64,000 nt of DNA from NCBI RefSeq assembly GCF_044324785.1, contig NZ_CP172127.1, one strand, 5' to 3'. Source of the stretch: Escherichia coli. Its GTDB lineage: Bacteria > Pseudomonadota > Gammaproteobacteria > Enterobacterales > Enterobacteriaceae. The translations under genes were made by a program, and so were the position numbers. Positions 13 through 19,790 of this stretch are shown one piece after another. A model generated the notes under the pieces. That model did no database searches and was not told the DNA's origin. It saw nothing but the letters and a program-made list of their open reading frames with translations. Within the stretch, counting starts at the first letter, position 1. The number at the start of each line of letters is the position of its first letter.

Positions 13-46
13 AAAAGCAAATCAGGCTGATGACAAAGCCATGCAA

Positions 47-106
47 GCGCACGGACAGTCCCCTCGCCCCTTCGGGGAGAGGGTTAGGGTGAGGGGAAAA
101 CCGTGC
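47..106. repeat. GC-rich imperfect-palindromic intergenic repeat (boxC-like; family assignment tentative), copy 1 of 3
   Basis: Motif gtcccctcgccccttcggggagagggttagggtgaggggaaaa recurs near-identically at 62581-62625 and in rearranged form at 15603-15706; always intergenic. Confidence 0.6.
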
Positions 107-423
107 CCATACTGACCCGTAAGCGAGTTTGTCAGCAATCTCAAATGATGCCCAAATGGTAACTACAACTCATAACTCTTTGGTGTTAATTGAGGCGATT
201 TTTTAACATTCCCATAAGTTACGCTTATTTAAAGCGTCGTGAATTTAATGGCGTAAATTCCTGCTATTTATTCGTTTGCTGAAGCGATTTCGCAGCATTT
301 GACGTCATCGCTTTTACGTGGCTTTATAAAAGACGACGAAAAGCAAAGCCCGAGCATATTCGCGCCAATGCGACGTGAAGGATACAGGGCTATCAAACGA
401 TAAGATGGGGTGTCTGGGGTAAT

Positions 424-3075
424 ATGAACGAACAATATTCCGCATTGCGTAGTAATGTCAGTATGCTCGGCAAAGTGCTGGGAGAAACCATCAAGGATGC
501 GTTGGGAGAACACATTCTTGAACGCGTAGAAACTATCCGTAAGTTGTCGAAATCTTCACGCGCTGGCAATGATGCTAACCGCCAGGAGTTGCTCACCACC
601 TTACAAAATTTGTCGAACGACGAGCTGCTGCCCGTTGCGCGTGCGTTTAGTCAGTTCCTGAACCTGGCCAACACCGCTGAGCAATACCACAGCATTTCGC
701 CGAAAGGCGAAGCTGCCAGCAACCCGGAAGTGATCGCCCGCACCCTGCGTAAACTGAAAAACCAGCCGGAACTGAGCGAAGACACCATCAAAAAAGCAGT
801 GGAATCGCTGTCGCTGGAACTGGTCCTCACGGCTCACCCAACCGAAATTACCCGTCGTACACTGATCCACAAAATGGTGGAAGTGAACGCCTGTTTAAAA
901 CAGCTCGATAACAAAGATATCGCCGACTACGAACACAACCAGCTGATGCGCCGCCTGCGCCAGTTGATCGCCCAGTCATGGCATACCGATGAAATCCGTA
1001 AACTGCGTCCAAGCCCGGTAGATGAAGCCAAATGGGGCTTTGCCGTAGTAGAAAACAGCCTGTGGCAAGGCGTACCGAATTACCTGCGCGAACTGAACGA
1101 ACAACTGGAAGAGAATCTCGGCTACAAACTGCCCGTCGAATTTGTTCCAGTCCGTTTTACCTCGTGGATGGGCGGTGACCGCGACGGCAACCCGAACGTC
1201 ACTGCCGATATCACCCGCCACGTCCTGCTGCTCAGTCGCTGGAAAGCCACCGATCTGTTCCTGAAAGATATTCAGGTGCTGGTTTCTGAACTGTCGATGG
1301 TTGAAGCGACCCCTGAACTGCTGGCGCTGGTTGGCGAAGAAGGTGCCGCAGAACCGTATCGCTATCTGATGAAAAACCTGCGTTCTCGCCTGATGGCGAC
1401 ACAGGCATGGCTGGAAGCGCGCCTGAAAGGCGAAGAACTGCCAAAACCAGAAGGCCTGCTGACACAAAACGAAGAACTGTGGGAACCGCTCTACGCTTGC
1501 TACCAGTCACTTCAGGCGTGTGGCATGGGTATTATCGCCAACGGCGATCTGCTCGACACCCTGCGCCGCGTGAAATGTTTCGGCGTACCGCTGGTCCGTA
1601 TTGATATCCGTCAGGAGAGCACCCGCCATACCGAAGCGCTGGGCGAGCTGACCCGCTACCTCGGTATCGGCGACTACGAAAGCTGGTCAGAGGCCGACAA
1701 ACAGGCGTTCCTGATCCGCGAACTGAACTCCAAACGTCCGCTGCTACCGCGCAACTGGCAACCAAGCGCCGAAACGCGCGAAGTGCTCGATACCTGCCAG
1801 GTGATTGCCGAAGCACCGCAAGGCTCCATTGCCGCCTACGTGATCTCGATGGCGAAAACGCCGTCCGACGTGCTTGCTGTCCACCTGCTGCTGAAAGAAG
1901 CGGGTATCGGCTTTGCGATGCCGGTTGCTCCGCTGTTTGAAACTCTCGATGACCTGAACAACGCCAACGATGTCATGACTCAGTTGCTGAATATCGACTG
2001 GTATCGCGGCCTGATTCAGGGCAAACAGATGGTGATGATTGGCTATTCCGACTCAGCAAAAGATGCGGGCGTGATGGCAGCGTCCTGGGCGCAATATCAG
2101 GCACAGGATGCATTAATCAAAACCTGCGAAAAAGCGGGTATTGAGCTGACGTTGTTCCACGGTCGCGGCGGTTCCATTGGTCGCGGCGGCGCACCTGCTC
2201 ATGCGGCGCTGCTGTCACAACCGCCAGGAAGCCTGAAAGGTGGCCTGCGCGTGACTGAACAGGGCGAGATGATCCGCTTTAAATATGGTCTGCCAGAAAT
2301 CACCGTCAGCAGCCTGTCGCTTTACACCGGGGCGATTCTGGAAGCCAACCTGCTGCCACCACCTGAGCCGAAAGAGAGCTGGCGTCGCATTATGGATGAA
2401 CTATCAGTCATCTCCTGCGATCTCTACCGTGGCTACGTACGTGAAAACAAAGATTTTGTGCCTTACTTCCGCTCCGCTACGCCGGAACAGGAACTGGGCA
2501 AACTGCCGTTGGGTTCACGTCCGGCGAAACGTCGCCCAACCGGCGGCGTCGAGTCACTACGCGCCATTCCGTGGATCTTCGCCTGGACGCAAAACCGTCT
2601 GATGCTCCCCGCCTGGCTGGGTGCAGGTACGGCGCTGCAAAAAGTGGTCGAAGATGGCAAACAGAGCGAGCTGGAGGCTATGTGCCGCGATTGGCCATTC
2701 TTCTCGACGCGTCTCGGCATGCTGGAGATGGTCTTCGCCAAAGCAGACCTGTGGCTGGCGGAATACTATGATCAACGTCTGGTAGACAAAGCACTGTGGC
2801 CGTTAGGTAAAGAGTTACGCAATCTGCAAGAAGAAGACATCAAAGTGGTGCTGGCGATTGCCAACGATTCCCATCTGATGGCCGATCTGCCGTGGATTGC
2901 AGAGTCTATTCAGCTACGGAATATTTACACCGACCCGCTGAACGTATTGCAGGCCGAGTTGCTGCACCGCTCCCGCCAGGCAGAAAAAGAAGGCCATGAG
3001 CCGGATCCTCGCGTCGAGCAGGCGTTAATGGTCACTATTGCCGGGATTGCGGCAGGTATGCGTAATACCGGCTAA
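424..3075 (+). CDS. ppc: phosphoenolpyruvate carboxylase
   Basis: 883-aa ORF starting [29 protein letters not shown], recognised as E. coli Ppc; length matches. Confidence 0.97.
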
Positions 3076-3089
3076 TCTTCCTCTCCTGC

Positions 3090-3124
3090 AAACCCTCGCG
3101 CTTTTGCGCGAGGGTTTTCTGAAA
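3090..3124 (+). terminator. rho-independent terminator downstream of ppc
   Basis: Inverted repeat aaaccctcgcgc-ttttg-cgcgagggttt followed by a T-rich tail, directly after the ppc stop. Confidence 0.7.
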
Positions 3125-3257
3125 TACTTCTGTTCTAACACCCTCGTTTTCAATATATTTCTGTCTGCATTTTATTCAAATTCTGGATATCCCTTCAGAT
3201 ATCCTTAAGGAATTGTCGGTACATTCGGCGATATTTTTTTCAAGACAGGTTCTTACT

Positions 3258-4991
3258 ATGCATTCCACAGAAGTCCAGGCTAAACCTCTTTTTAGCTGGA
3301 AAGCCCTGGGTTGGGCACTGCTCTACTTTTGGTTTTTCTCTACTCTGCTACAGGCCATTATTTACATCAGTGGTTATAGTGGTACTAACGGCATTCGCGA
3401 CTCGCTGTTATTCAGTTCGCTGTGGTTGATCCCGGTATTCCTCTTTCCGAAGCGGATTAAAATTATTGCCGCAGTGATCGGCGTGGTGCTATGGGCGGCC
3501 TCTCTGGCGGCGCTGTGCTATTACGTCATCTACGGTCAGGAGTTCTCGCAGAGCGTTCTGTTTGTGATGTTCGAAACCAACACCAACGAAGCCAGCGAGT
3601 ATTTAAGCCAGTATTTCAGCCTGAAAATTGTGCTTATCGCGCTGGCCTATACGGCGGTGGCAGTTCTGCTGTGGACACGCCTGCGCCCGGTCTATATTCC
3701 AAAGCCGTGGCGTTATGTTGTCTCTTTTGCCCTGCTTTATGGCTTGATTCTGCATCCGATCGCCATGAATACGTTTATCAAGAACAAGCCGTTTGAGAAA
3801 ACGTTGGATAACCTGGCATCGCGTATGGAGCCTGCCGCACCGTGGCAATTCCTGACCGGCTATTATCAGTATCGTCAGCAACTAAACTCGCTAACAAAGC
3901 TACTGAATGAAAATAATGCCTTGCCGCCGCTGGCTAATTTCAAAGATGAATCGGGTAACGAACCGCGCACCTTAGTGCTGGTAATTGGCGAGTCGACCCA
4001 GCGTGGACGCATGAGTCTGTACGGTTATCCGCGTGAAACCACGCCGGAGCTGGATGCGCTGCATAAAACCGATCCTAATCTGACCGTGTTTAATAACGTA
4101 GTTACGTCTCGTCCGTACACCATTGAAATCCTGCAACAGGCGCTGACCTTTGCCAATGAAAAGAACCCGGACCTGTACCTGACACAGCCGTCGCTGATGA
4201 ACATGATGAAACAGGCGGGTTATAAAACCTTCTGGATCACCAACCAGCAGACAATGACCGCCCGCAATACCATGCTGACGGTATTTTCGCGCCAGACCGA
4301 CAAGCAGTACTACATGAACCAGCAACGTACGCAGAGTGCGCGTGAATACGACACCAACGTGCTGAAGCCGTTCCAGGAAGTGTTGAAGGACCCTGCACCG
4401 AAGAAACTGATCATCGTTCATCTGCTGGGTACGCATATCAAATACAAATACCGCTACCCGGAAAATCAGGGCAAGTTTGATGACAATACCGATCATGTTC
4501 CACCGGGATTAAGCGCAGAAGAGCTGGAGTCATATAACGATTATGACAACGCTAACCTGTATAACGATCATGTGGTTGCCAGCCTGATTAAAGACTTTAA
4601 AGCAGCAGACCCGAACGGTTTCCTGGTTTACTTCTCTGACCACGGTGAAGAGGTTTACGACACGCCGCCGCACAAAACTCAGGGGCGTAATGAAGACAAC
4701 CCGACGCGTCATATGTACACCATTCCGTTCCTGCTGTGGACGTCAGAAAAATGGCAAGCGACTCATCCGCGTGATTTCTCACAGGATGTTGATCGTAAAT
4801 ACAGCCTGGCGGAATTGATCCACACCTGGTCAGATTTAGCGGGCTTATCTTACGACGGTTACGACCCAACCCGTTCAGTGGTGAATCCGCAGTTCAAAGA
4901 AACTACCCGCTGGATTGGTAACCCGTACAAGAAAAACGCGCTGATCGATTACGACACGCTGCCGTATGGCGACCAGGTAGGTAATCAGTAA
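3258..4991 (+). CDS. eptC: phosphoethanolamine transferase (LPS core modification), sulfatase-family membrane protein
   Basis: ORF 3213-4991; the remembered EptC/YijP N-terminus MHSTEVQAKPLFSWKALGW begins at the internal ATG 3258 (577 aa). Multi-TM N-terminus plus sulfatase-like C-terminus. Confidence 0.9.
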   Translation: MHSTEVQAKPLFSWKALGWALLYFWFFSTLLQAIIYISGYSGTNGIRDSLLFSSLWLIPVFLFPKRIKIIAAVIGVVLWAASLAALCYYVIYGQEFSQSVLFVMFETNTNEASEYLSQYFSLKIVLIALAYTAVAVLLWTRLRPVYIPKPWRYVVSFALLYGLILHPIAMNTFIKNKPFEKTLDNLASRMEPAAPWQFLTGYYQYRQQLNSLTKLLNENNALPPLANFKDESGNEPRTLVLVIGESTQRGRMSLYGYPRETTPELDALHKTDPNLTVFNNVVTSRPYTIEILQQALTFANEKNPDLYLTQPSLMNMMKQAGYKTFWITNQQTMTARNTMLTVFSRQTDKQYYMNQQRTQSAREYDTNVLKPFQEVLKDPAPKKLIIVHLLGTHIKYKYRYPENQGKFDDNTDHVPPGLSAEELESYNDYDNANLYNDHVVASLIKDFKAADPNGFLVYFSDHGEEVYDTPPHKTQGRNEDNPTRHMYTIPFLLWTSEKWQATHPRDFSQDVDRKYSLAELIHTWSDLAGLSYDGYDPTRSVVNPQFKETTRWIGNPYKKNALIDYDTLPYGDQVGNQ

Positions 4992-5054
4992 ATGACCTTT
5001 GTATCGCGTCTGGCGCTATTTGCCGGATGCGATACTGTCACAATGTTTACATCG

Positions 5055-5084
5055 AACTCCCCTCAGGCCACACTTTTCAGGTGG
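5055..5084 (+). terminator. rho-independent terminator downstream of eptC
   Basis: Hairpin aggccacac-ttttca-ggtggcct followed by tttttt. Confidence 0.65.
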
Positions 5085-5139
5085 CCTTTTTTAATAATGC
5101 CAGTTACTGTTTTCCCGTCTACATACCTAAGGGAATAAC

Positions 5140-5991
5140 ATGTATCACGACGTCAGCTATCTGCTCTCCCGCCTGATCAACGGCCCGCTGTCCCTGCGCC
5201 AGATTTACTTTGCCAGCAGTAACGGCCCGGTGCCCGATCTTGCGTATCAGGTCGATTTTCCACGACTGGAAATTGTGCTGGAAGGTGAGTTTGTTGATAC
5301 CGGCGCTGGAGCAACGTTAGTTCCCGGCGATGTGCTGTACGTTCCCGCTGGTGGCTGGAATTTTCCACAATGGCAAGCCCCCGCCACTACCTTTAGCGTG
5401 CTGTTTGGCAAACAGCAACTCGGCTTCAGCGTCGTGCAATGGGATGGCAAACAATATCAAAATCTGGCGAAGCAACACGTCGCCCGACGCGGCCCACGCA
5501 TAGGCTCTTTTCTGCTACAAACGCTCAATGAAATGCAAATGCAGTCGCAGGAGCAGCAAACGGCAAGGCTTATCGTCGCCAGCCTGCTTAGCCACTGCCG
5601 CGATTTGCTTGGCAGCCAAATCCAGACCGCCTCACGCAGCCAGGCACTGTTCGAAGCTATTCGTGATTATATCGACGAACGCTATGCCTCCGCGCTTACC
5701 CGCGAATCTGTCGCACAGGCATTCTATATTTCGCCAAATTACCTCTCGCACCTGTTTCAAAAAACGGGGGCCATTGGTTTTAACGAATACCTGAATCACA
5801 CGCGACTGGAGCACGCTAAGACGTTGTTGAAAGGCTATGACCTGAAGGTAAAAGAAGTGGCGCACGCCTGCGGCTTTGTCGACAGCAACTACTTCTGCCG
5901 TCTGTTTCGTAAAAATACCGAACGCTCACCGTCGGAATATCGTCGGCAGTACCACAGCCAACTGACAGAAAAACCGACTACTCCAGAATGA
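5140..5991 (+). CDS. yijO: AraC-family transcriptional regulator
   Basis: 283-aa ORF with a C-terminal AraC-type HTH region (NYLSHLFQK...SPSEYRRQ); position matches K-12 yijO. 3' end overlaps the convergent frwD by 14 bp. Confidence 0.9.
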   Translation: MYHDVSYLLSRLINGPLSLRQIYFASSNGPVPDLAYQVDFPRLEIVLEGEFVDTGAGATLVPGDVLYVPAGGWNFPQWQAPATTFSVLFGKQQLGFSVVQWDGKQYQNLAKQHVARRGPRIGSFLLQTLNEMQMQSQEQQTARLIVASLLSHCRDLLGSQIQTASRSQALFEAIRDYIDERYASALTRESVAQAFYISPNYLSHLFQKTGAIGFNEYLNHTRLEHAKTLLKGYDLKVKEVAHACGFVDSNYFCRLFRKNTERSPSEYRRQYHSQLTEKPTTPE

Positions 5992-6319
5992 GATGGGTTT
6001 GCTGCGGCGCAGAAAGCACTTTGCGTACCGCGCTCATCACCCGCTGCGGCTCACGCAGGAAAGCGTAGATGCTGCATTGCACATAGCGGCAATGTTCAAA
6101 TCGCTCGGCACCGGCAAGCTCGATATCCGTAATCAACAGAGCAACATCCGCGCGACGGATATCCTCGTCCGCTAAACGATTCTCCGTTCCCAACGCGCCC
6201 TGAGTTTCAATGCTGACGCCCCACTTCTCTAACAGGCACAACTTTTCCAGCCGTTCCGCCGCCATATAAGTATGCGCCACGCCGCTTACGCAGGCGGTTA
6301 CTGCCACCAGGTATGCCAT
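5978..6319 (-). CDS. frwD: PTS fructose-like EIIB component
   Basis: 113-aa ORF MAYLVAVTACVSGVAHTYMAAERLE with the EIIB(Fru) active-site Cys motif (TAC.SGVAHTYMAAE). Confidence 0.9.
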   Translation of the reverse strand: MAYLVAVTACVSGVAHTYMAAERLEKLCLLEKWGVSIETQGALGTENRLADEDIRRADVALLITDIELAGAERFEHCRYVQCSIYAFLREPQRVMSAVRKVLSAPQQTHLILE

Positions 6320-6320
6320 T

Positions 6321-7199
6321 TTAACCTCCCACGGTAACCTGAAATCCGGCCCGTTCTGCCATTTCGCGCATCGTTGCTACATCAGCTGACGACGGCGCAG
6401 GCACCTCTTTCATCGACCATGTTTTCCCCAGCAGGCGGTATTTTGGTTCGCCGTACTGATGAAACGGTAAAAGATGGATCTGCCTGATATTCAGCGGGAT
6501 CAGCACGTCCAGCGCCTGCTGCATATTCTCCCGGCTGAGCGTAAAACCAGGGATCAGCGGTAAACGCGGGATCACGTTGACGCCCTCACTCACCAGCAAA
6601 CGCAGATTCTCCAGCACGCGTGGCAGGTTCATCTTCACCACATCCCGCGCCTGAGTCACGTCCATAATTTTTAAATCGAACAACACTTCATCGCACAATT
6701 TCGCCAGCGGTAACAGCTTGCTGGCTGGCGCGTCTCCGGCAGTTTCAATGGCACATGACACACCCCACAGCCGCAGTCGCTGTAAAAAACGGGTAGCAAA
6801 TTCCGCCTGCATTAACACTTCGCCGCCAGAAAGCGTGACGCCGCCGCCGGACGTGCGAAAGAAAATGTCATCTTTCATCACTTCCCGTTCCAGCGCGTCA
6901 AGGCTGATATCGCGACCAATCCGTTCAAACGCCCCGGAGGGGCATTCATCCGCATCACGCAAACATTTCGCACAGTGCAGACATTTCGCCTCTCTGCGTA
7001 CCGTCTGGATTTTGCCTGAGATCGACTCCGGATTAGCACACCACGGGCAAAGATGCGGACAGCCTTTAAAAAAGACCACCGTACGAATGCCCTCGCCGTC
7101 ATTCAGTGAATAACGCTGAATGTTGAAAATGCGCGCCACATCATCGCGGCGCGTTTCCACAACGTTACAGCTGATGCGCTGTCCGGCGGATGATGTCAT
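6321..7199 (-). CDS. pflC: glycyl-radical enzyme activating protein (radical SAM; pyruvate formate-lyase 2 activase)
   Basis: ORF track gives 315 aa; the remembered PflC start MTSSAGQRISCNVVETRRDD corresponds to ATG at 7199 (292 aa). Radical-SAM Cys cluster CPHLCPWC present. Overlaps the pflD 3' end. Confidence 0.9.
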   Translation of the reverse strand: MTSSAGQRISCNVVETRRDDVARIFNIQRYSLNDGEGIRTVVFFKGCPHLCPWCANPESISGKIQTVRREAKCLHCAKCLRDADECPSGAFERIGRDISLDALEREVMKDDIFFRTSGGGVTLSGGEVLMQAEFATRFLQRLRLWGVSCAIETAGDAPASKLLPLAKLCDEVLFDLKIMDVTQARDVVKMNLPRVLENLRLLVSEGVNVIPRLPLIPGFTLSRENMQQALDVLIPLNIRQIHLLPFHQYGEPKYRLLGKTWSMKEVPAPSSADVATMREMAERAGFQVTVGG

Positions 7200-9462
7200 C
7201 CTGGATCTCCTTCGACAGTTCGACAAAGAAGGCGCTGTATCCGGCAACGCGCACCACCAGCCCGGCATAATCTTGTGGGCGCTGTTGCGCTTCCCGCAAC
7301 GTGTCGGCGTTCACCACGTTAAACTGAATGTGTTGTAACTTAAGCTGGGTAAATGCCCGTAAGAAGTCGGCCAGTTTGCGTAATCCCGCTTCACCTTCCA
7401 GGGTCGCCGGAGTGAATTTCACGTTCAGCAACGTACCGTTAGACAGCAGCGTATTATCGAGCTTACTGACTGACTTCAGTACCGCCGTTGGCCCTTGTGC
7501 GTCCTGACCCAGCATAGGTGACAAGCCGCCGTCTGCCAGTTGTTCCCCGGCAAAACGACCGTCTGGCGTCGCGCCAACCACCGATCCCAACGGGACGTGA
7601 GCAGAAACGGTATACGATCCCGGCGTGAAGTAGCCGCCGCGCGGGTTTTGGTATTTTTCCACTTCTTTGCAGTAGTGGCGTAACAGTTCGGCGCTAATGT
7701 TATCCACCTCGTCGATATCGTTACCGTATTTCTCGAAGCGGTTAATTAAGCGAGCGCGGACTTTTTCGCCTTCTGGCGTTGCGAAGTTGGCTTTTAATAC
7801 CGACAGCAATTCGTCAAAACTTAAACGCTGTTGATCAAAAACCATCCCTTTCAACGCATGGAGAGAATCGCTCAGGTTGGCGATACCAATTCCCTGTACG
7901 CCGGAGAAGTTATAACGCGCGCCGCCATCGGTAATATCGCGACCTTTTTCCAGACAATCGCTGATAAAAGACGAGAGCAGCGGTACAGGTGCCCAGTCGC
8001 GATGGCCGATATCACAAATATTGCTGCCCTCTACCATCAGGGTGATGTAGTGGCTGATCTTGGCGCGGATCTGCTCCAGTAAACCTTCATAAGTCAGCGC
8101 AGCATTGCCTTCATTTTCATGCAGGCAGATTTCCATCACTTTCAGCAGATTAAACATCGCGATGTCATGCAAGCCGTAGGTTCTGCCGGGAATAGATAAT
8201 TCCACACAGCCCACTACGGAATAGTCGCGCGCATCTTCCAGCGAAACGCCACGGTTGAGGAACGCTGGTACCACCACTTCATCGTTAAAGATTTGCGGAA
8301 TGCCGGTGCCGAGGCGAATGGTTTCTGCGGTTTTCATCAGGAACGGCGTGTCGATCAAGGCGTTAGTTCGCACACCGAGGTTCGGTTGCGGTAATTGCAC
8401 GCTTTGATAAGCGTCAAGGCAGAGGAACGAAAGCACGTTCACCGCGCTACGTCCGTTTTCGGTTAACCCGCCGAGCAGTGCGGTATAGCCGGTCGGGAAA
8501 CCTGCGAAATAACGCGCACTGCTGGTGGAGCGCAACAGCACGATGTCGTTGCATTTCACCCATAAAGATTCGAGCAGTTCTTTCAGGAACGCCGGATCTT
8601 CGCCCTGGGTTAATGATGCCTGATAGAACGGCAACATATACTGGTCGAAGCGCCCCAACGATAGCGAACTGGCGTTGGATTCGTATTGCAGAATGATGTT
8701 CATGTACCAGAATAACTGGCACGCCTGCCAGAACGTCTGCGGCTTATGTTCGGCGTTATGGCGAGAGATCTCCGCAATAGTCAGCAGTTCTTCGCGACGC
8801 TGGGCATCTGTGCAGTTTGCCGCCATCGTTTCCGCCAGTTCGGCGTAACGCAAAATGTGTTTCTGCGAGGCTTCGAGCAGTAACAGCGCTGCCTGATAAA
8901 AGTGATTCTCCGGCTGTTGCTGACAATGTTGCTGCATTTGCGCTACCAGCTCACCCAGCCCGTGATTCAGCAGGCGCGGGTAATCAATAATAATGTGCCC
9001 CTGGCCTTTATCCGTCTGGTTGATGCTGAAAATCTGCGTGCTGGTCGCGGCTTTTACTTCATCCGTCATCTGCCCGTTAATGAAATCTTTCATCGAACGT
9101 TTTTCCCAGTACGGGAACAACTCTTCGCGGTAGATACGTTTATCTTCTTCGCTGATAGCAAAGCGGTCCTGCGGACGCGTCGGGAATTGATCCAGCTCTT
9201 TCAGCAGCCAGTAAGGGTCCATTTCCGGCGACATAATCCCGGCGCGTGGTTTTACGGTGCGGTTACCGGCAATCAGTTCTTCATCACGAATCGAAATTTC
9301 AACATGTTCAAGGATATACGCTGTTGCTTTCGCCCGGCGCAATATCACCGGTTCGCCTTCGGTTTGCCGATGGCTGGCGGTATAAAGCAGCGCCCGCTCC
9401 AGCGAGATTTCACGGGTATTGGCAAACAGTGCAGTTTTGAGGCGAGAGATACGATTCGTCAT
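7165..9462 (-). CDS. pflD: glycyl radical enzyme (putative formate acetyltransferase 2), substrate unknown
   Basis: 765-aa ORF MTNRISRLKTALFANTREISLERALLY; C-terminal glycyl-radical motif region VRVAGYSAFFVEL. Confidence 0.95.
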   Translation of the reverse strand: MTNRISRLKTALFANTREISLERALLYTASHRQTEGEPVILRRAKATAYILEHVEISIRDEELIAGNRTVKPRAGIMSPEMDPYWLLKELDQFPTRPQDRFAISEEDKRIYREELFPYWEKRSMKDFINGQMTDEVKAATSTQIFSINQTDKGQGHIIIDYPRLLNHGLGELVAQMQQHCQQQPENHFYQAALLLLEASQKHILRYAELAETMAANCTDAQRREELLTIAEISRHNAEHKPQTFWQACQLFWYMNIILQYESNASSLSLGRFDQYMLPFYQASLTQGEDPAFLKELLESLWVKCNDIVLLRSTSSARYFAGFPTGYTALLGGLTENGRSAVNVLSFLCLDAYQSVQLPQPNLGVRTNALIDTPFLMKTAETIRLGTGIPQIFNDEVVVPAFLNRGVSLEDARDYSVVGCVELSIPGRTYGLHDIAMFNLLKVMEICLHENEGNAALTYEGLLEQIRAKISHYITLMVEGSNICDIGHRDWAPVPLLSSFISDCLEKGRDITDGGARYNFSGVQGIGIANLSDSLHALKGMVFDQQRLSFDELLSVLKANFATPEGEKVRARLINRFEKYGNDIDEVDNISAELLRHYCKEVEKYQNPRGGYFTPGSYTVSAHVPLGSVVGATPDGRFAGEQLADGGLSPMLGQDAQGPTAVLKSVSKLDNTLLSNGTLLNVKFTPATLEGEAGLRKLADFLRAFTQLKLQHIQFNVVNADTLREAQQRPQDYAGLVVRVAGYSAFFVELSKEIQDDIIRRTAHQL

Positions 9463-9512
9463 GAGGAACTCCTGTGGGAAAGCGAACCCGCCCTTGCGAG
9501 CGGGAGAAGAAC

Positions 9513-9833
9513 TTAAGCGGTTTGTGCCAGGTGAGCTTCAATTTTGCTCATAATGGCATCAGCGCGTTTTACCGCGTCGCTGATGTTGACGCGCACGATG
9601 GTCTTGCCAGCAAAACGCTCTTCAAACTTGATGCCGATATCTTTGGTCAGAATCACCATATCGGCGCTCGCCACGTCTTCCGCAGTCAGTTCATTTTCCA
9701 GACCAATTGAGCCCTGGGTTTCTACTTTCACTTCCCAGCCTTTCGCTTTCGCGGCACTTTCCAGCGCCTCTGCCGCCATATAGGTATGGGCAACACCAGA
9801 TGGACACGCGGTTACTGCAATAATTTTCGTCAT
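9513..9833 (-). CDS. frwB: PTS fructose-like EIIB component
   Basis: 106-aa ORF MTKIIAVTACPSGVAHTYMAAEALE, EIIB(Fru)-type. Confidence 0.92.
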   Translation of the reverse strand: MTKIIAVTACPSGVAHTYMAAEALESAAKAKGWEVKVETQGSIGLENELTAEDVASADMVILTKDIGIKFEERFAGKTIVRVNISDAVKRADAIMSKIEAHLAQTA

Positions 9834-9847
9834 GGCTCGTTCCTCAA

Positions 9848-10927
9848 TTAATTAATTTCAAAATCCAAATCCAGGTCGTCTTCCTTCTCATCAGTCGAAG
9901 ACCCATTTTTACGCGCCAGACTTTTCAGCACGTTCACGCAGACTGCTGTCACAACCGCCCCGACAGCCACTGCTGCGATATAACCCAGCTTGCCTTCAAC
10001 CACCGGCAGCACAATCAGACCACCCCAGCCTGCATAGCACTGCGCACCGACCAGCGCCGCAGTTACCGCACCACAAACTGAACCGACCATGATGGAAGGA
10101 ATGACACGCAGCGGATCGGCAGCGGCGAAAGGAATCGCCCCTTCAGTAACGCCAACACAGCCCATCACCAGTGCCGCCTTGCCGGTTTCGCGCTCTTCTG
10201 CGGAGAAATTTTTACGACCAATCAGCGTCGCCAGCCCCATCCCCAGCGGCGGGATACAAATACCCACGGCAGCAATGGCCACCACGGTATAAACACCCTG
10301 AGCAACGCAAATCAGCATGAAGGCATAGGCCACTTTGTTAACCGGGCCGCCCATATCGAACGCCAGCATCAGACCCATGATCACCGCCAGCATAACAATG
10401 CTGCCCTGCTGCATCCCCTGAAGCCACTGAGTCAGGCTGTTGGTCAATGCCCCCACAGGCTCGCCCAGCCCCCACATCATGACGCCAGCGGTAATCAGTG
10501 TGCCGACGATAGGAATAATGAAGATTGGCATCACCGAGCGCAGAACTTTATGCACCGGAATTTTCTTCAGGTAATGCACCACGATGCCGCCGATAATCCC
10601 GGCGATCAGCGCACCAAAAAAACCCGCACCAAAGCTGTTACCGACCCAGGCACCGATAGCGCACGGGGCCAGCGCAGAGCGTTCTGCAATGGAATAACCG
10701 ATGTAAGCGGCGAGGAAAGGCACCATCAGCGTCAACCCCGCAACGCCGATATCAAACAGTTTTTTCAGATTCGGATCGGCTACGGCATCCGGCACTGCGC
10801 CTTTGCCATACAACATGACGGAAACCGCCAGCAAAATACCGCCCGATACCACGAAGGGAATCATGTGTGAAACGCCCGTCATTAAATGCTGACGGGTATT
10901 TTTCAGGATCTGCACCAACTCATTCAT
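9848..10927 (-). CDS. frwC: PTS fructose-like EIIC permease
   Basis: 359-aa polytopic membrane ORF, immediately upstream of frwB in the same operon orientation. Confidence 0.92.
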   Translation of the reverse strand: MNELVQILKNTRQHLMTGVSHMIPFVVSGGILLAVSVMLYGKGAVPDAVADPNLKKLFDIGVAGLTLMVPFLAAYIGYSIAERSALAPCAIGAWVGNSFGAGFFGALIAGIIGGIVVHYLKKIPVHKVLRSVMPIFIIPIVGTLITAGVMMWGLGEPVGALTNSLTQWLQGMQQGSIVMLAVIMGLMLAFDMGGPVNKVAYAFMLICVAQGVYTVVAIAAVGICIPPLGMGLATLIGRKNFSAEERETGKAALVMGCVGVTEGAIPFAAADPLRVIPSIMVGSVCGAVTAALVGAQCYAGWGGLIVLPVVEGKLGYIAAVAVGAVVTAVCVNVLKSLARKNGSSTDEKEDDLDLDFEIN

Positions 10928-11235
10928 AAGCTGCTCCCGGGCTTGCGAAAGCCCATGTCCATATTTTTGATGGAAGAAACAATAGGCAATCGCAGGCGGA
11001 GCAAACAGTGGATAAAAAGGCCATTTACTGGACTTTTGTAATATCAGTACAAAAATGCGATCCGCCTCATAACTTGCGATAATCCGGAAGTACGCCGCAA
11101 AACGGCGTCTTGTGAGACGCGTCGCAAATTGACGGTTACATTACATTTGTCCAGCTTTTGGCAGATTTGTCACATGGCAGGCCGTTGTCGTGCGCTCTTA
11201 TCCTGTAAACAGAAAACCGTACCGGGAGAAAGGCA

Positions 11236-13737
11236 ATGGCCCTGATTGTGGAATTTATTTGTGAGCTACCTAACGGCGTCCATGCGCGTCCGGCAAGCCA
11301 CGTTGAAACGCTGTGTAATACTTTTTCATCACAAATTGAGTGGCATAACCTGCGCACTGACCGCAAGGGCAACGCCAAAAGCGCCCTTGCGCTGATTGGC
11401 ACCGATACGCTGGTGGGCGATAACTGCCAGTTGCTGATTTCCGGGGCCGACGAACAGGAAGCGTACCAGCGTTTAAGCCAATGGCTGCGCGATGAATTCC
11501 CCCACTGCGACGCACCGCTGGCGGAAGTTAAATCTGACGAGCTGGAGCCGCTGCCGGTTTCACTGACCAACCTGAATCCGCGAATTATCCGCGCCCGCAC
11601 CGTGTGCAGCGGTAGCGCAGGCGGCATTCTGACGCCGATCTCTTCTTTAGATCTCAATGCGCTGGGTAATCTTCCCGCTGCCAAAGGCGTTGACGCCGAG
11701 CAATCCGCGCTGGAAAACGGCCTGACGCTGGTACTGAAAAACATTGAGTTTCGTCTGCTGGATAGTGACGGTGCCACCAGCGCGATTCTGGAAGCGCACC
11801 GCTCCCTGGCTGGCGATACTTCCCTGCGCGAACATTTACTGGCAGGCGTCAGCGCCGGATTAAGCTGCGCCGAAGCAATTGTTGCCAGCGCGAATCACTT
11901 TTGTGAAGAGTTCACCCGTTCCAGCAGCAGCTACCTGCAAGAACGTGCCCTGGACGTACGCGACGTCTGCTTCCAGTTACTCCAGCAAATCTACGGTGAG
12001 CAACGCTTCCCGGCACCGGGCAAACTGACGCAGCCCGCCATTTGTATGGCTGATGAACTGACCCCCAGCCAGTTCCTCGAACTGGATAAAAATCACCTCA
12101 AAGGATTGTTGCTCAAAAGCGGCGGCACCACCTCACATACGGTGATCCTTGCCCGTTCGTTCAACATTCCGACGCTGGTTGGTGTGGATATTGATGCCCT
12201 TACCCCGTGGCAACATCAAACGATTTATATCGACGGCAACGCCGGAGCGATTGTGGTTGAGCCAGGGGAAGCCGTAGCCCGTTATTATCAGCAAGAAGCC
12301 CGCGTACAGGATGCCCTGCGTGAGCAACAGCGTGTCTGGCTGACCCAACAAGCCCGTACCGCTGACGGTATCCGCATTGAAATTGCTGCTAACATCGCTC
12401 ACTCCGTGGAAGCGCAGGCCGCATTCGGCAATGGTGCGGAAGGCGTTGGTTTGTTCCGCACTGAAATGCTCTATATGGATCGCACCAGCGCACCGGGCGA
12501 AAGCGAGTTGTATAACATTTTTTGTCAGGCGCTGGAGTCCGCCAACGGGCGCAGCATTATTGTGCGCACTATGGACATTGGCGGTGACAAACCCGTTGAT
12601 TATCTGAACATTCCCGCAGAGGCAAACCCGTTCCTCGGTTATCGCGCCGTGCGTATTTATGAAGAGTACGCGTCGTTATTTACCACACAACTACGGTCGA
12701 TTCTCCGTGCCTCCGCTCACGGCAGCCTGAAAATCATGATCCCGATGATCTCTTCAATGGAAGAGATCTTATGGGTGAAAGAAAAACTGGCGGAAGCCAA
12801 ACAGCAACTGCGTAACGAACACATTCCGTTTGATGAGAAGATCCAGCTCGGCATCATGCTGGAAGTGCCGTCGGTGATGTTCATCATCGATCAATGCTGT
12901 GAAGAGATTGATTTCTTTAGTATTGGTAGTAATGACCTGACGCAATATCTGCTGGCAGTGGATCGCGATAACGCTAAGGTTACTCGTCACTATAACAGCC
13001 TGAATCCAGCATTCTTGCGGGCGCTCGATTACGCCGTGCAGGCGGTGCATCGCCAGGGCAAATGGATTGGTCTGTGCGGTGAACTGGGAGCGAAAGGTTC
13101 CGTGCTGCCATTGCTGGTCGGTTTAGGGCTGGATGAACTCAGCATGAGCGCACCATCAATTCCGGCGGCGAAAGCGCGAATGGCGCAACTTGATAGCCGT
13201 GAGTGCCGCCAGTTGCTCAACCAGGCAATGGCCTGCCGTACTTCGCTGGAAGTGGAACACCTGCTGGCACAATTCCGCATGACCCAACAGGACGCACCAC
13301 TGGTCACCGCCGAGTGCATCACGCTGGAAAGCGACTGGCGCAGCAAAGAAGAAGTGCTCAAAGGCATGACCGATAACCTGCTGCTGGCAGGGCGCTGCCG
13401 CTATCCGCGTAAACTGGAAGCCGACTTGTGGGCGCGCGAGGCCGTTTTCTCTACCGGTCTGGGCTTTAGTTTTGCCATTCCACACAGCAAATCAGAACAC
13501 ATTGAGCAATCCACCATCAGCGTAGCGCGTCTGCAAGCGCCGGTGCGCTGGGGCGATGATGAAGCGCAATTCATCATTATGTTAACCCTGAACAAACACG
13601 CTGCGGGCGATCAGCATATGCGCATTTTCTCGCGCCTCGCTCGCCGCATCATGCACGAAGAATTCCGTAACGCGCTGGTTAACGCCGCCTCTGCCGACGC
13701 TATCGCCAGCCTGCTGCAACATGAACTGGAACTGTAA
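11236..13737 (+). CDS. ptsA: multidomain PEP-protein phosphotransferase (HPr-like / Enzyme I / EIIA-like fusion)
   Basis: 833-aa ORF; N-terminal HPr-like region (GVHARPASH), central Enzyme I PEP-utilising region, C-terminal EIIA(Fru)-like region; divergent from frwC. Confidence 0.93.
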
Positions 13738-13748
13738 AAGGAAACATC

Positions 13749-14411
13749 ATGGAACTGTATCTGGACACCGCTAACGTCGCAGAAGTCGAACGTCTGGCAC
13801 GCATATTCCCGATTGCCGGGGTGACAACTAACCCGAGCATTATCGCTGCCAGCAAGGAGTCCATCTGGGAAGTGCTGCCGCGTCTGCAAAAAGCGATTGG
13901 TGATGAAGGCATTCTGTTTGCACAGACCATGAGTCGTGATGCGCAGGGAATGGTGGAAGAAGCGAAGCGCCTGCGCGACACCATTCCGGGCATTGTGGTG
14001 AAAATCCCGGTGACTTCCGAAGGTCTGGCCGCCATTAAGATGCTGAAAAAAGAGGGTATTACTACACTTGGCACCGCAGTGTACAGTGCTGCACAAGGGT
14101 TACTGGCCGCGCTGGCAGGGGCAAAATACGTTGCTCCGTATGTTAATCGCGTAGATGCCCAGGGCGGAGACGGCATTCGTACGGTTCAGGAGCTGCAAGC
14201 ACTGTTAGAAATGCACGCGCCAGAAAGCATGGTGCTGGCAGCCAGCTTTAAAACGCCGCGTCAGGCGCTGGACTGTTTACTAGCAGGATGTGAATCCATC
14301 ACCCTGCCCTTAGATGTAGCGCAACAAATGCTCAACACCCCTGCGGTAGAGTCAGCTATAGAGAAGTTCGAACACGACTGGAATGCCGCATTTGGCACTA
14401 CTCATCTCTAA
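13749..14411 (+). CDS. fsaB: fructose-6-phosphate aldolase 2 (transaldolase-like)
   Basis: 220-aa [35 protein letters not shown], recognised as FsaB/TalC. Confidence 0.95.
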
Positions 14412-14421
14412 AGGAGCAATT

Positions 14422-15525
14422 ATGGACCGCATTATTCAATCACCGGGTAAATACATCCAGGGCGCTGATGTGATTAATCGTCTGGGAGAATACCTGAAGC
14501 CACTGGCAGAACGCTGGTTAGTGGTGGGTGACAAATTTGTTTTAGGTTTTGCTCAATCCACTGTCGAGAAAAGCTTTAAAGATGCTGGACTGGTAGTAGA
14601 AATTGCGCCGTTTGGCGGTGAATGTTCGCAAAATGAGATCGACCGTCTGCGTGGCATCGCGGAGACTGCGCAGTGTGGCGCAATTCTCGGTATCGGTGGC
14701 GGAAAAACCCTCGATACTGCCAAAGCACTGGCACATTTCATGGGTGTTCCGGTAGCGATCGCACCGACTATCGCCTCTACCGATGCACCGTGCAGCGCAT
14801 TGTCTGTTATCTACACCGATGATGGTGAATTTGACCGCTATCTGATGTTGCCAAATAACCCGAATATGGTCATTGTCGACACCAAAATCGTCGCTGGCGC
14901 ACCTGCACGTCTGTTAGCGGCGGGTATCGGCGATGCGCTGGCAACCTGGTTTGAAGCGCGTGCTTGCTCTCGTAGCGGCGCGACCACCATGGCGGGCGGC
15001 AAGTGCACCCAGGCGGCGCTGGCACTGGCTGAACTGTGCTACAACACCCTGCTGGAAGAAGGCGAAAAAGCGATGCTTGCCGCCGAACAGCATGTAGTGA
15101 CTCCGGCGCTGGAGCGCGTGATTGAAGCGAACACCTATTTGAGCGGCGTGGGTTTTGAAAGCGGAGGTCTGGCTGCGGCGCACGCAGTACATAACGGCCT
15201 GACCGCTATTCCAGATGCGCATCACTATTATCACGGTGAAAAAGTGGCATTCGGTACGCTGACGCAGCTGGTTCTGGAAAACGCGCCGGTGGAGGAAATC
15301 GAAACCGTAGCTGCACTTAGCCATGCGGTAGGTTTGCCAATAACTCTCGCTCAACTGGATATTAAAGAAGATGTCCCGGCGAAAATGCGAATTGTGGCAG
15401 AAGCGGCATGTGCAGAAGGTGAAACCATTCACAACATGCCTGGCGGCGCGACGCCAGATCAGGTTTACGCCGCACTGCTGGTAGCTGACCAGTATGGACA
15501 ACGTTTCCTGCAAGAGTGGGAATAA
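14422..15525 (+). CDS. gldA: glycerol dehydrogenase (iron-containing ADH family)
   Basis: ORF 14383-15525; internal ATG at 14422 preceded by aaggag gives [24 protein letters not shown] (367 aa), the GldA N-terminus. Confidence 0.93.
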
Positions 15526-15529
15526 CCTA

Positions 15530-15564
15530 CTCCAAACTCCCGGCTTGTCCGGGAGTTTGAGAGT
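15530..15564 (+). terminator. stem-loop downstream of gldA (possible terminator; no clear T-tract)
   Basis: Perfect inverted repeat ctccaaactcccgg-cttgt-ccgggagtttgagag. Confidence 0.4.
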
Positions 15565-15602
15565 GCAGGCAAAGTGGCTCACTCGTCACTGCGGGCATGT
15601 TT

Positions 15603-15706
15603 TTCCCCCTCGCCCTTTCAGGGAGAGGTGCGGGGTGAGGGTAAATATTCGCCCCGGAGCTGGCCTGTTCCCCTCACCCTAACCCTCTCCCCAAAGGGGA
15701 GAGGGG
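15603..15706. repeat. GC-rich intergenic repeat (boxC-like), copy 2; two inverted partial units
   Basis: Contains tccccctcgccctttcagggagaggtgcggggtgagggtaaa and ccctcaccctaaccctctccccaaaggggagagggg, related to the copies at 47-106 and 62445-62625. Confidence 0.6.
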
Positions 15707-15855
15707 ACTGTTCGAGCACTTTTTATACGTTATCACCCGTCTGAAACTCCCACGTTGTTCAGGAATTTTTTATCCGCTTCTGGACATTTTCTCTACAGAA
15801 CAATCGTTAGCCCGGTAGGTCGAATCTGTGACTCTTATTTTCACGGACGAACCAG

Positions 15856-16473
15856 ATGAAAGCTTCACTGGCGCTGGTCAGCCTGCTAACGGCATTTACC
15901 AGCCACTCCTTAAAATCTCCCGCCATTCCACCAACCGTGGTACAAATTCAGGCCAACACCAACCTTGCCATCGCAGACGGTGCCAGACAGCAAATTGGCA
16001 GCACTCTATTTTACGATCCGGCGTATGTGCAGCTTACCTATCCTGGCGGTGATGTCCCACAAGAACGCGGTGTATGTTCCGATGTGGTGATCCGTGCATT
16101 GCGCAGCCAGAAGGTTGATTTGCAGAAACTGGTTCACGAAGATATGGCGAAGAATTTTGCCGATTATCCGCAAAAGTGGAAGTTAAAGCGCCCGGACAGC
16201 AACATCGATCACCGTCGGGTGCCTAATCTGGAAACCTGGTTTACCCGCCACGATAAAACACGCCCCACCAGCAAGAACCCCAGTGACTATCAAGCGGGCG
16301 ATATTGTCTCCTGGCGACTGGATAACGGGCTGGCGCATATTGGGGTGGTGTCAGATGGCTGTGCCCGCGACGGTACGCCGCTGGTGATACATAACATTGG
16401 CGCAGGCGCGCAGGAAGAAGACGTGCTGTTTAGCTGGCGGATGGTGGGGCACTATCGGTATTTTGTTCAATAA
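15856..16473 (+). CDS. yijF: DUF1287-family protein with N-terminal signal peptide
   Basis: 205-aa ORF MKASLALVSLLTAFTSHS; synteny between gldA and yijE. Confidence 0.88.
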   Translation: MKASLALVSLLTAFTSHSLKSPAIPPTVVQIQANTNLAIADGARQQIGSTLFYDPAYVQLTYPGGDVPQERGVCSDVVIRALRSQKVDLQKLVHEDMAKNFADYPQKWKLKRPDSNIDHRRVPNLETWFTRHDKTRPTSKNPSDYQAGDIVSWRLDNGLAHIGVVSDGCARDGTPLVIHNIGAGAQEEDVLFSWRMVGHYRYFVQ

Positions 16474-16499
16474 GCGATCGCCCCACATGAAGAAAAAAT

Positions 16500-17405
16500 T
16501 CAGATGCTTTTTACACTGACAGCTTCTTTTTTCTTACGGCTCACCAGCGCCAGTGCCAGCACAATCAGCACAATACCGCTACCTTCAACGGCCCCCGGAT
16601 TCTCACCGAGCAGCCACCAGGAAAAGAGTACGCCGCAAACGGGAACGGCCAGTGTGCTTAAACTGGCAATACTGGCAGGCAAGTTTTTCAATACAAACAA
16701 CCATAAGCTCCACGCCAGCGCCGTCGCCAGAATCGCACTGTAGGCCAGCGCCCAGAACACGGTAGGCTGCCAGTCAATTTCACGTTGCGGCACCAGTAAA
16801 GCGACCACACTCATCACCAGCGCCGCATACAGCATCTGCCAGGATGTTAACGACAATAAATCCACGCGCGGATGACGGGCATACAGACGTTTAGCAACAA
16901 TCGCGCTCGCCCCCCAACTAACACCGGAGAGGATTGCCAGCATGGCACTTTTCATCGAAGAGAAATCGAGTTGCCACGGCTGCAACACCAAAAATAAGCC
17001 GAAAGCGGCAATCAGTATCGCGAAATATTGCCCACGTCGCAGGCGTTCACCGAGAAACAACGCGGCGAAAATCACCACCCAGAACGGCATGGTATAGCTC
17101 AGGATCGCCACCTTCCCCGCTCCTCCGCTGACCAGCGCCCACTGCGCCAGGCCAACCATCCCACAGGTTTGTAACAGGGCAATGGCTAAGGTGTATTTAA
17201 ACGGTGTCGGGCGCATTCCGCGACCACGTAATAAAAGGACAATGAATAAAACGAGAGCGCCGAAAATGCAGCGTAAGGCGGTAAAGTCGAAGGCACCGAT
17301 GTAGCTGGTGACTTGCTTCATGAAAATCCAGCTATAACTCCAGATAAGTGTGAGCACAACCAGGCCACTGATTGCCAGTGGGTTGCTCTTTCCTGCGGCA
17401 GACAT
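16500..17405 (-). CDS. yijE: EamA/DMT-family inner-membrane transporter
   Basis: ORF 16500-17438 (312 aa); start placed at the internal Met ([17 protein letters not shown], 301 aa) to match the remembered annotation. The upstream ATG at 17438 is an alternative; neither has a strong SD. Confidence 0.85.
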
Positions 17406-17497
17406 GAGAGATCCAGTGTGTAGTTTTCCTGTGGACACTATACGCCGGTAAAGAAACTTCAGCGACTGCCATCAGGCAGTCGCTGAAGAAGGTCAGA

Positions 17498-19790
<2,293 letters not shown>

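Follow-up and report, generated by a model that had tools for sequence, protein, structure and literature searches.

What is a glycyl-radical enzyme (GRE) doing amid the genes of a sugar phosphotransferase system (PTS)? The question is raised by a 7.76-kb stretch (positions 5978 to 13737) of the window studied here, by which we mean the whole 64-kb piece of Escherichia coli DNA that was analyzed. In this stretch the GRE gene pflD and its activase gene pflC are surrounded by the PTS genes frwC, frwB, and frwD and face the divergent ptsA gene. A previous annotation of the same DNA, made from its letters only and referred to below as the sequence-only reading, had described a cryptic, fructose-like PTS cluster with an embedded GRE pair whose substrate was not established, and had put forward the hypothesis that the GRE acts, under anaerobic conditions, on a sugar imported by the PTS. 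Our analysis identifies the locus as an ordinary, intact core pathway of E. coli with a function that is already known and was published in 2024. More specifically, we assign a probability of roughly 0.87 to the view that the window carries a complete pathway for the anaerobic use of 1,5-anhydro-D-mannitol ("anhydroglycolysis").

Enzyme Class of PflD and PflC

PflD carries the glycyl-radical motif RVAGY at residues 737–741, with the glycine at G740 (Pfam PF01228, residues 645–747, E = 4e-31), and a cysteine loop, VVGCVEL, in which GCVE occupies residues 417–420 and supplies C418 and E420. C418 is invariant in both alignments made. In a four-way alignment, the loop reads VGCVE in PflD, IGCIET in YbiW, VGCVET in the Streptococcus protein of Protein Data Bank (PDB) entry 8id0, and ACCVSP in the pyruvate formate-lyase (PFL) PflB. 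Judged by these residues, PflD is a member of the GRE superfamily with the single-Cys plus Glu signature of eliminases and dehydratases and without the Cys-Cys pair of PFL.

In profile searches, PflD scores 1347.6 bits against the PFL2 family model TIGR01774 (cut-off 678.2) and 1727 bits against NF007437 (cut-off 1109), and it fails the PFL equivalog model TIGR01255 (121 bits against a cut-off of 994). Its closest non-orthologous structures in the PDB are the B12-independent glycerol dehydratase (653 bits) and diol dehydratase (600 bits); PFL is matched with 118 bits, over residues 247–763 only, and identity to PflB amounts to 25%. Entry 8yjo, named "Probable dehydratase PflD," is matched with 1729 bits and differs by 6 substitutions in 765 residues, and the entries 8id7 and 8yjn carry the name "Probable dehydratase YbiW." Membership of the PflD orthologue group follows from the 8yjo match, the score above the NF007437 cut-off, and the syntenic locus. 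The nearest cluster representatives below 50% identity (P0122 and P0124) lie on short or unrelated contigs and are uninformative about gene context.

In published pull-down experiments, the formate channel FocA was bound by PflB and TdcE but not by PflD (PMC5600444). The notion that PflD is simply a redundant PFL, which the sequence-only reading had raised against its own hypothesis, fails on the PFL model, on the missing Cys-Cys pair, and on the lack of FocA binding. PflD does contain the Pfam domains PFL-like and Gly_radical, and both RefSeq and the NCBIfam model NF007437 name the product formate C-acetyltransferase; this annotation is misleading.

The product of pflC scores 628 bits against NF007483 (cut-off 326, match 1–292 of 292) and 261 bits against TIGR02494 (cut-off 174). 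It contains the CX3CX2C motif as C47-x3-C51-x2-C54, plus a further cluster, C73xxC76xxC79...C86. The longest open reading frame (ORF) would begin at 7268; a start at 7199 is supported by an AAGGAG Shine-Dalgarno sequence 7 nt upstream of the ATG and by the end-to-end match to NF007483.

As a separate observation, residue 383 of PflD is Leu in the window and Phe in the K-12 protein (8yjo). Leu383 is invariant in the other aligned PflD orthologues, which come from Salmonella, Edwardsiella, Streptococcus, and a 47%-identical metagenomic protein, and the laboratory strain may hold an unusual allele.

Published Function and Proposed Pathway

According to a 2025 review (PMC12441222) that summarizes the work of Ma et al. 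(2024; J Am Chem Soc 146:26187), YbiW cleaves 1,5-anhydroglucitol-6-phosphate and PflD cleaves 1,5-anhydromannitol-6-phosphate, each yielding 1-deoxyfructose-6-phosphate. The earlier statement that the substrate of PflD is not established is, in the light of this assignment, out of date. The two pathways are described as breaking down 1,5-anhydroglucitol and 1,5-anhydromannitol, both begin with PTS phosphorylation to the 6-phosphate, and ring opening by YbiW and PflD needs the glycyl radical and therefore strict anaerobiosis; anaerobic growth on 1,5-anhydroglucitol is explicitly reported (PMC12441222). Together with the cross-phylum gene linkage described below, this account bears out the hypothesis of a PTS-imported sugar that is processed anaerobically by a GRE.

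In the pathway that we propose for the locus, PtsA would hand the phosphate of phosphoenolpyruvate (PEP) to the EIIB protein FrwB (and to FrwD), while FrwC would bring in the anhydro-sugar as its 6-phosphate. PflC would put the glycyl radical on G740 of PflD. A thiyl radical on C418, assisted by E420, would then start a radical C-O elimination, in which the pyranose ether ring is opened to yield 1-deoxyfructose-6-phosphate. This product would be split by FsaB into hydroxyacetone and glyceraldehyde-3-phosphate, and GldA would reduce hydroxyacetone to 1,2-propanediol with NADH, balancing the NADH that arises on the way from glyceraldehyde-3-phosphate to pyruvate. On the regulatory side, a hairpin between frwB and pflD would adjust the transporter:enzyme ratio, and the AraC-family protein YijO, acting with cAMP-CRP, would activate both divergent promoters via a mirrored pair of operators, each about 40 bp long and arranged as at araBAD. 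In the abstract of the original study, FsaA and FsaB reportedly split 1-deoxyfructose-6-phosphate into hydroxyacetone and glyceraldehyde-3-phosphate, and GldA is said to reduce hydroxyacetone to 1,2-propanediol. Growth on anhydromannitol is also said to have been reported, and substrate-bound crystal structures are said to exist.

Components of the PTS and the Downstream Enzymes

The frw, pfl, ptsA, fsaB, and gldA proteins each exceed, over their full length, the curated cut-off of their own NCBIfam equivalog or subfamily model. For the PTS proteins, the scores are 720 bits against NF007787 (cut-off 426) and 301 against TIGR01427 (cut-off 158) for FrwC, 210 against NF007783 (cut-off 135) and 138 against TIGR00829 (cut-off 77) for FrwB, and 224 against NF007747 (cut-off 153) and 86 against TIGR00829 (cut-off 77) for FrwD. 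FrwB and FrwD are 44% identical. The phospho-Cys10 is kept in 76 of 76 FrwB orthologues, and the corresponding FrwD motif, TAC[VI]SGVAHTYM, in 72 of 72. PtsA comprises the Pfam domains PTS-HPr (residues 7–84), PEP-utilisers_N, PEP-utilizers, PEP-utilizers_C, and PTS_EIIA_2 (residues 690–829), and its phospho-His contexts, including FAIPHS, are readable in the sequence. With an EIIC, an EIIB bearing the phospho-Cys, and EIIA, HPr, and EI bearing phospho-His, Frw/PtsA has the makeup of a fructose-family PTS. Within it, PtsA is best read as a private phosphorelay from PEP to FrwB and FrwD, and FrwBC would be a specific anhydromannitol permease.

FsaB scores 351 bits against TIGR00875 (cut-off 246) and is 70% identical to FsaA; the context of its Schiff-base Lys, IVVKIPVT, aligns with IVVKVPVT of FsaA. 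GldA scores 752 bits against NF047954 (cut-off 700, match 1–365 of 365). Hydroxyacetone is the preferred donor of Fsa and a substrate of GldA. By gene content, the locus encodes a self-contained set of phosphorelay and permease, GRE and activase, Fsa aldolase, and GldA, together a complete route that begins with an anhydro-sugar outside the cell and ends in glycolysis and a redox sink.

The genes ptsA, fsaB, and gldA form one operon, for which there is evidence of anaerobic induction, and expression is low in aerobic laboratory media (PMC6643234). On these expression data, low aerobic expression fits an inducible, anaerobic pathway. The labels "cryptic" and "fructose-like," under which the locus had been described, are legacy terms; all of its genes are intact and have dN/dS values of 0.014–0.09.

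Linkage across Species

A scan with one genome per species yielded 80 loci, from Escherichia, Citrobacter, Enterobacter, Klebsiella, Yersinia, Hafnia, Rahnella, Serratia, Edwardsiella, Gilliamella, Zophobihabitans, Necropsobacter, and Vibrio, and neighbors were counted in the 64 loci of at least 20 kb. Besides pflD, these long loci contain yijO in all cases, pflC in 62, ptsA, frwB, and frwD in 59 each, frwC in 58, fsaB in 54, and gldA in 35. The E. coli chromosomal neighbor ppc is found with pflD in 33 of the 64, and the module persists after the ppc/eptC neighborhood is lost. At least seven different gene orders of the module occur among the long loci, suggesting that it moves and rearranges as a unit.

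The source of 8id0 is Streptococcus dysgalactiae. Its protein is 61% identical to PflD, and the operon in this species reads EIIA(Fru type)-EIIB-EIIC-GRE-activase-Fsa-FeADH. Lacticaseibacillus has a DeoR gene followed by GRE-activase-EIIA-EIIB-EIIC, an arrangement in which the PTS is kept, and a Clostridium has a DeoR gene followed by GRE-activase-Fsa-oxidoreductase, in which the aldolase is kept. S. pyogenes has an operon of PTS-pflD-mipB-gldA genes, which are regulated together (PMC10210942). The link of the GRE to a fructose-family PTS and to Fsa, as seen in these gene neighborhoods, holds in about 60 gammaproteobacterial species and recurs in Streptococcus. Comparative genomics on its own, without recourse to biochemistry, lends strong support to a functional link between GRE and PTS.

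Two further observations were made on related loci. A metagenome contig of a Clostridium sp. (L087) carries, 4.5 kb downstream of its PflD-type GRE-activase-Fsa genes, another GRE-activase pair that is accompanied by a separate DeoR regulator and a mannose-family PTS. This arrangement points to tandem pathways at a single locus, either for anhydro-sugars or of a related radical type. In Kluyvera, a small ORF between pflC and a yijO-like gene was considered as a degenerate frwD and rejected; it is not one.

Layout and Conservation of the Locus

Gene coordinates in the window (Table 1) derive from an ORF map of positions 1–20000 and from the annotation of E. coli N3, the closest complete genome. 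The gene identities and the layout of frwC-frwB-pflD-pflC-frwD given in the sequence-only reading were confirmed: the genes are co-oriented, tightly packed, and intact. Gaps on the minus strand measure 14 bp (frwC-frwB), 50 bp (frwB-pflD), and 1 bp (pflC-frwD), and the overlap of 35 bp between pflD and pflC holds given the annotated pflC start at 7199. The divergence from ptsA-fsaB-gldA likewise stands, these genes being on the opposite strand beyond a spacer of 308 bp, with gaps of 11 bp (ptsA-fsaB) and 10 bp (fsaB-gldA). No ORF of the locus contains an internal stop, and every gene is intact and of full length. As to the extent of the cluster, the genes originally listed do belong to it, but yijO had been left out, and ptsA-fsaB-gldA belongs to the same pathway; the functional unit would therefore also take in fsaB, gldA, and yijO.

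Table 1. Genes and predicted regulatory features of the locus; positions are those of the window.
Feature	Position	Strand	Description
yijO	5140–5991	+	AraC-family regulator gene, convergent with frwD, with a 14-bp overlap of the frwD 3' end
frwD	5978–6319	-	Second PTS EIIB (Fru-type) paralogue
pflC	6321–7199	-	Radical-SAM activating enzyme for PflD
pflD	7165–9462	-	Glycyl-radical C-O lyase, 1,5-anhydromannitol-6-phosphate ring-opening "dehydratase"
Hairpin, GC-rich, then T-rich run	9487–9504	-	Terminator-like match in the 50-nt frwB-pflD spacer
frwB	9513–9833	-	PTS EIIB (Fru family), partner of FrwC
frwC	9848–10927	-	PTS EIIC permease (Fru family)
frwC promoter module (predicted)	10977–11071	-	CRP-like site, operator, and -10; footprint
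-10 hexamer TATTGT, frwC side (predicted, weak)	10979–10984	-	
Operator, frwC side (predicted)	11004–11044	-	TTACAAAAGTCCAGTAAATGGCC..TTTTTATCCAC
CRP-like site, frwC side	11056–11071	-	TATGAGGCGGATCGCA (TGCGATCCGCCTCATA on the plus strand), 2 mismatches
ptsA promoter module (predicted)	11110–11205	+	CRP-like site, operator, and -10; footprint
CRP-like site, ptsA side	11111–11126	+	TGTGAGACGCGTCGCA, 1 mismatch
Operator, ptsA side (predicted)	11138–11175	+	ACATTACATTTGTCCAGCTTTTGGCAGATTTGTCACAT, ATTTGTC repeated 20 bp apart
-10 hexamer TATCCT, ptsA side (predicted, weak)	11199–11204	+	
ptsA	11236–13737	+	Fused HPr-EI-EIIA(Fru) protein
fsaB	13749–14411	+	Fructose-6-phosphate-aldolase-type enzyme; just beyond the cluster end at 13737 in the sequence-only reading
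gldA	14422–15525	+	NADH-dependent hydroxyacetone/1,2-propanediol (glycerol) dehydrogenase; beyond the same cluster end at 13737

The 7.76-kb stretch was found in 5425 of 5426 complete E. coli genomes, 5393 of which cover at least 80% of it, in agreement with the view that it is conserved core and not novel in this strain. Its best DNA identity among these genomes is only 98.6%, so that the lineage of the window lacks an exact representative among the complete E. coli genomes compared. In comparison with Citrobacter braakii (dS about 1–1.9), dN/dS lies between 0.014 and 0.09 for all nine genes of Table 1, which are kept by strong purifying selection. An Rfam scan of the whole window returned no known RNA family inside the locus.

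The Divergent Spacer and the frwB-pflD Hairpin

To delimit conserved elements, a footprint was compiled from the frwC-ptsA spacers of 53 dereplicated species, all below 85% pairwise identity, in which blocks with a conservation of at least 80% were marked. Against a mean conservation of 59%, blocks were found at 10977–10991, 11004–11044, 11050–11071, 11110–11127, 11138–11175, and 11197–11205. They fall into the two predicted promoter modules of Table 1. The operators, each of about 40 bp, contain the core TTACAwwwnTCCAG, followed 20 bp downstream by a second T-rich repeat. The left and right halves of the spacer align in register with a score of 60, compared with 37.8 +/- 5.0 (maximum 56) for 500 shuffles. 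Within the 64-kb window, there are exactly two copies of the 13-nt core TACAWWWDTCCAG, which lie in the spacer in inverted orientation: as TACAAAAGTCCAG at 11028–11040 on the minus strand and as TACATTTGTCCAG at 11142–11154 on the plus strand. The same core is present twice per locus in 63 of the 80 related loci, where we estimate about one chance occurrence in all 1.6 Mb. The mirrored modules, conserved from E. coli to Vibrio, went undetected in an exact-seed repeat search and became visible only in gapped local alignment and in the cross-species footprint.

Transcription is predicted to start at about 10972 on the minus strand and at about 11211 on the plus strand. Relative to these starts, the CRP-like sites are centered about 92 bp upstream and the operators extend from about -75 to -35. 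At araBAD, CRP is positioned near -93 and the AraC half-sites run from about -75 to -35. On the basis of the footprint, we predict two mirrored araBAD-like modules, each consisting of a CRP site, an operator, and a -10 element, that would serve frwC and ptsA, respectively. A sigma-54 reading of the spacer, TGGCAG-N5-TCACA, was rejected, as it has 3 mismatches and its GG/GC elements are not conserved in other genera. No description of the regulation of the locus was found among the searchable papers.

The 50-nt spacer between frwB and pflD folds at -15.3 kcal/mol, and the median minimum free energy of this spacer across 74 loci is -18.5 kcal/mol. A hairpin was seen here in most of the 16 genera examined, formed by stems of unrelated sequence, but not in Yersinia, Rahnella, Necropsobacter, or one Buttiauxella. 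The element in the window may be a partial terminator or an mRNA-stabilizing element that divides the transporter genes from the enzyme genes, and it may set the transporter:enzyme transcript ratio.

YijO and FrwD

The C-terminal part of YijO contains the Pfam domains HTH_18 (PF12833) and HTH_AraC (PF00165). Its AlphaFold2 model (pLDDT 85) consists of an N-terminal beta-sandwich (residues 22–115), a long helix, and the AraC double helix-turn-helix, and full-length Foldseek matches of this model include the ligand-binding regulators ToxT, Rns, and CsvR. As modeled, YijO is an AraC/XylS-type regulator with a C-terminal double helix-turn-helix and a probable N-terminal sensory domain. Across the seven or more gene arrangements, yijO is the only gene besides pflD that is present in all 64 long loci. 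It was classed as an uncharacterized transcription factor in papers from 2016 and 2022, and no literature assigning it a target was found among the searchable papers. We lean toward the view that YijO is a dedicated regulator of the locus.

The frwD gene stays adjacent to yijO through most rearrangements of the module, and the versions of the pathway in Firmicutes have neither FrwD nor YijO. The frwD-yijO pair is also listed among the convergent transcriptional overlaps in a 2025 survey. By analogy with EIIB(Glc)-Mlc, FrwD could act not in transport but as a sensor of phosphorylation state through which PTS flux would govern the activity of YijO, with YijO and CRP acting on both mirrored operators through the core TACAWWWDTCCAG; we regard this as an unlikely possibility. 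The same scheme holds that the convergent 14-bp overlap of frwD and yijO would add antisense ("excludon") feedback, a suggestion that we consider equally speculative. The loci of three Kluyvera species, one Enterobacteriaceae bacterium, and Edwardsiella piscicida, which have yijO and pflDC without frwD, argue against an obligatory pairing of FrwD and YijO. Control of the mirrored promoters by YijO, with or without a FrwD sensor, would be of modest interest.

Alternative Explanations

The fructose-family EIIC, EIIB, and EIIA domains leave room for a different substrate: the locus might be a true anaerobic PTS pathway for fructose or another natural ketose or polyol, for which 1,5-anhydromannitol is only a laboratory surrogate. 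Earlier work did tie PtsA to anaerobic fructose catabolism (cited in PMC6643234), and in a mammalian context 1,5-anhydromannitol has been called a "non-physiological polyol" (PMC12441222). Nevertheless, we think this quite improbable, as the same review states that the pathways degrade 1,5-anhydroglucitol and 1,5-anhydromannitol, 8yjo has been deposited in the PDB, and the downstream enzymes fit a 1-deoxy-ketose product, not fructose-6-phosphate, which needs no radical chemistry. It is even harder to maintain that this strain carries the cluster as a cryptic or decaying leftover of evolution that is not expressed and serves no present function. Full-length ORFs, dN/dS values of 0.014–0.09, presence in 5425 of 5426 genomes, and regulatory motifs conserved from E. 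coli to Vibrio all stand in the way of this very unlikely explanation, which draws on the historical label "cryptic," on low expression under aerobic laboratory conditions (PMC6643234), and on the lack of a strong consensus sigma-70 promoter in the spacer; weak core promoters are, however, expected where activators of the AraC/CRP type are required. Finally, PflD and PflC could be a spare pyruvate (or 2-ketoacid) formate-lyase and its activase that lie amid PTS genes by accident. The product name in RefSeq and NF007437 and the PFL-like and Gly_radical domains would suit such an enzyme, yet PflD has G417-C418 where PflB has Cys-Cys, reaches 121 of the 994 bits of TIGR01255, shares 25% identity with PflB, and does not bind FocA. 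Moreover, its nearest solved relatives are dehydratases, its linkage to PTS and Fsa extends across phyla, and the literature gives a different reaction, so that we give this possibility almost no credence.

Several points also count against the anhydromannitol pathway as we have drawn it. The substrate assignment of PflD rests on a review summary, on PDB molecule names, and on what the abstract of the original study reportedly states, and the roles of FsaB and GldA on that abstract plus gene linkage. That FrwBC, and not another PTS, would be the anhydromannitol carrier is argued from linkage and from the review's statement on the PTS. Moreover, three Kluyvera species and one Enterobacteriaceae bacterium (L035, L036, L040, and L053), as well as E. 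piscicida (L082), keep pflDC and a yijO-like gene, but neither an frw PTS nor fsaB or gldA lies within 10 kb of them; in Kluyvera, the pflD-pflC-yijO-like trio adjoins hypD/hypE and fhlA-like genes. These loci may use a transporter encoded elsewhere, or may be remnants. With respect to regulation, the role of YijO is proposed from co-localization, and the promoter and operator assignments are predictions from the footprint. A search of the 308-bp spacer for an FNR box (TTGAT-N4-ATCAA) with at most 3 mismatches found none, and direct FNR control is therefore not claimed. A simple sigma-70 scan detected no strong promoter in the spacer and fewer sites overall than in shuffles; since the promoters would be activator-dependent, we consider this generic scan uninformative.

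Other Features of the Window

Outside the locus, an Rhs element lies between yiiX and rpmE (about 29,060–38,660). It comprises a 4.2-kb RHS core protein gene, a gene for a sel1-repeat protein, orphan Rhs C-terminal fragments, and remnants of ISAs1 and IS1. Positions 15600–40000 are covered to at least 80% in only 334 of the 5426 complete E. coli genomes. The interval between metF and metL (about 21,280–24,100) holds two accessory genes, which encode a bifunctional metallophosphatase/5'-nucleotidase and a hypothetical protein; K-12 presumably has nothing at this position. Rfam matches above the gathering score outside the locus are a ClpQY promoter element (43694–43751, plus strand), the leader of ribosomal protein L31 (39030–39082, minus strand), and the small RNA ES036 (CssrF; 57403–57444, plus strand), all of which are expected for this chromosomal region.

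Significance

The 2024 work solved a long-standing puzzle, namely the purpose of PflD, the frw PTS, the Fsa aldolases, and GldA. The labels that are still in use, "formate C-acetyltransferase" for PflD (RefSeq/PGAP, NF007437) and "fructose-like" for FrwBCD, mislead metabolic reconstructions. The pathway bears on gut ecology and on clinical questions about 1,5-anhydroglucitol, and its counterpart in Streptococcus is the operon that is perturbed in S. pyogenes of the epidemic M1UK lineage. The predicted action of YijO and CRP on mirrored promoters would offer a route to the function of one remaining uncharacterized E. coli transcription factor.

Comparison with Known Systems

The closest system is the K-12 locus frwCB-pflDC-frwD/ptsA-fsaB-gldA (b3945-b3953), whose PflD belongs to the pathway termed "radical-mediated glycolysis" and which has the same order, orientation, and spacing; the window differs from it by alleles only. 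A second relative within E. coli is YbiW/YbiY with FsaA, where in K-12 a GRE and its activase are likewise divergent from an Fsa aldolase. YbiW shares with PflD the GC[IV]E loop and the RVAGYSA motif and gives the same product (PMC12441222), with identities of 37% for PflD/YbiW, 36% for PflC/YbiY, and 70% for FsaB/FsaA. In contrast to the window, the ybiW locus has no adjacent PTS, gldA, or AraC-type gene, and the substrate of YbiW is the C2 epimer.

Outside the Gammaproteobacteria, the S. dysgalactiae operon of 8id0 and the PTS-pflD-mipB-gldA operon of S. pyogenes have the same gene content as the pathway in the window. The S. dysgalactiae operon is co-directional, however, with a separate small EIIA instead of the fused EI-HPr-EIIA, a single EIIB, and no YijO-type regulator, and related loci in Firmicutes have regulators of the DeoR type.

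Among GREs in general, glycerol dehydratase, propanediol dehydratase, CutC, and HypD share with PflD the single Cys with a Glu at +2 and radical C-O or C-N elimination. PflD differs from these eliminases in its leaving group, the intramolecular ring ether oxygen of a sugar phosphate, and its net reaction is an isomerizing ring opening, whereas the others lose water or an amine. PflB/PflA have in common with PflD/PflC the GRE superfamily, the glycyl-radical C-terminal domain, and a radical-SAM activase, but PflB is only 25% identical to PflD, which lacks the Cys-Cys pair, stays below the cut-off of the PFL model, and does not bind FocA.

With regard to the predicted regulation, araBAD resembles the predicted promoters of the window in having an upstream CRP-like site, a two-repeat operator, a weak -10, and a linked AraC-family gene. 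In the window, the module is duplicated in mirror image and would drive two divergent operons. Furthermore, yijO converges on one of these operons, whose end it overlaps, whereas the regulator gene of araBAD is divergently transcribed.

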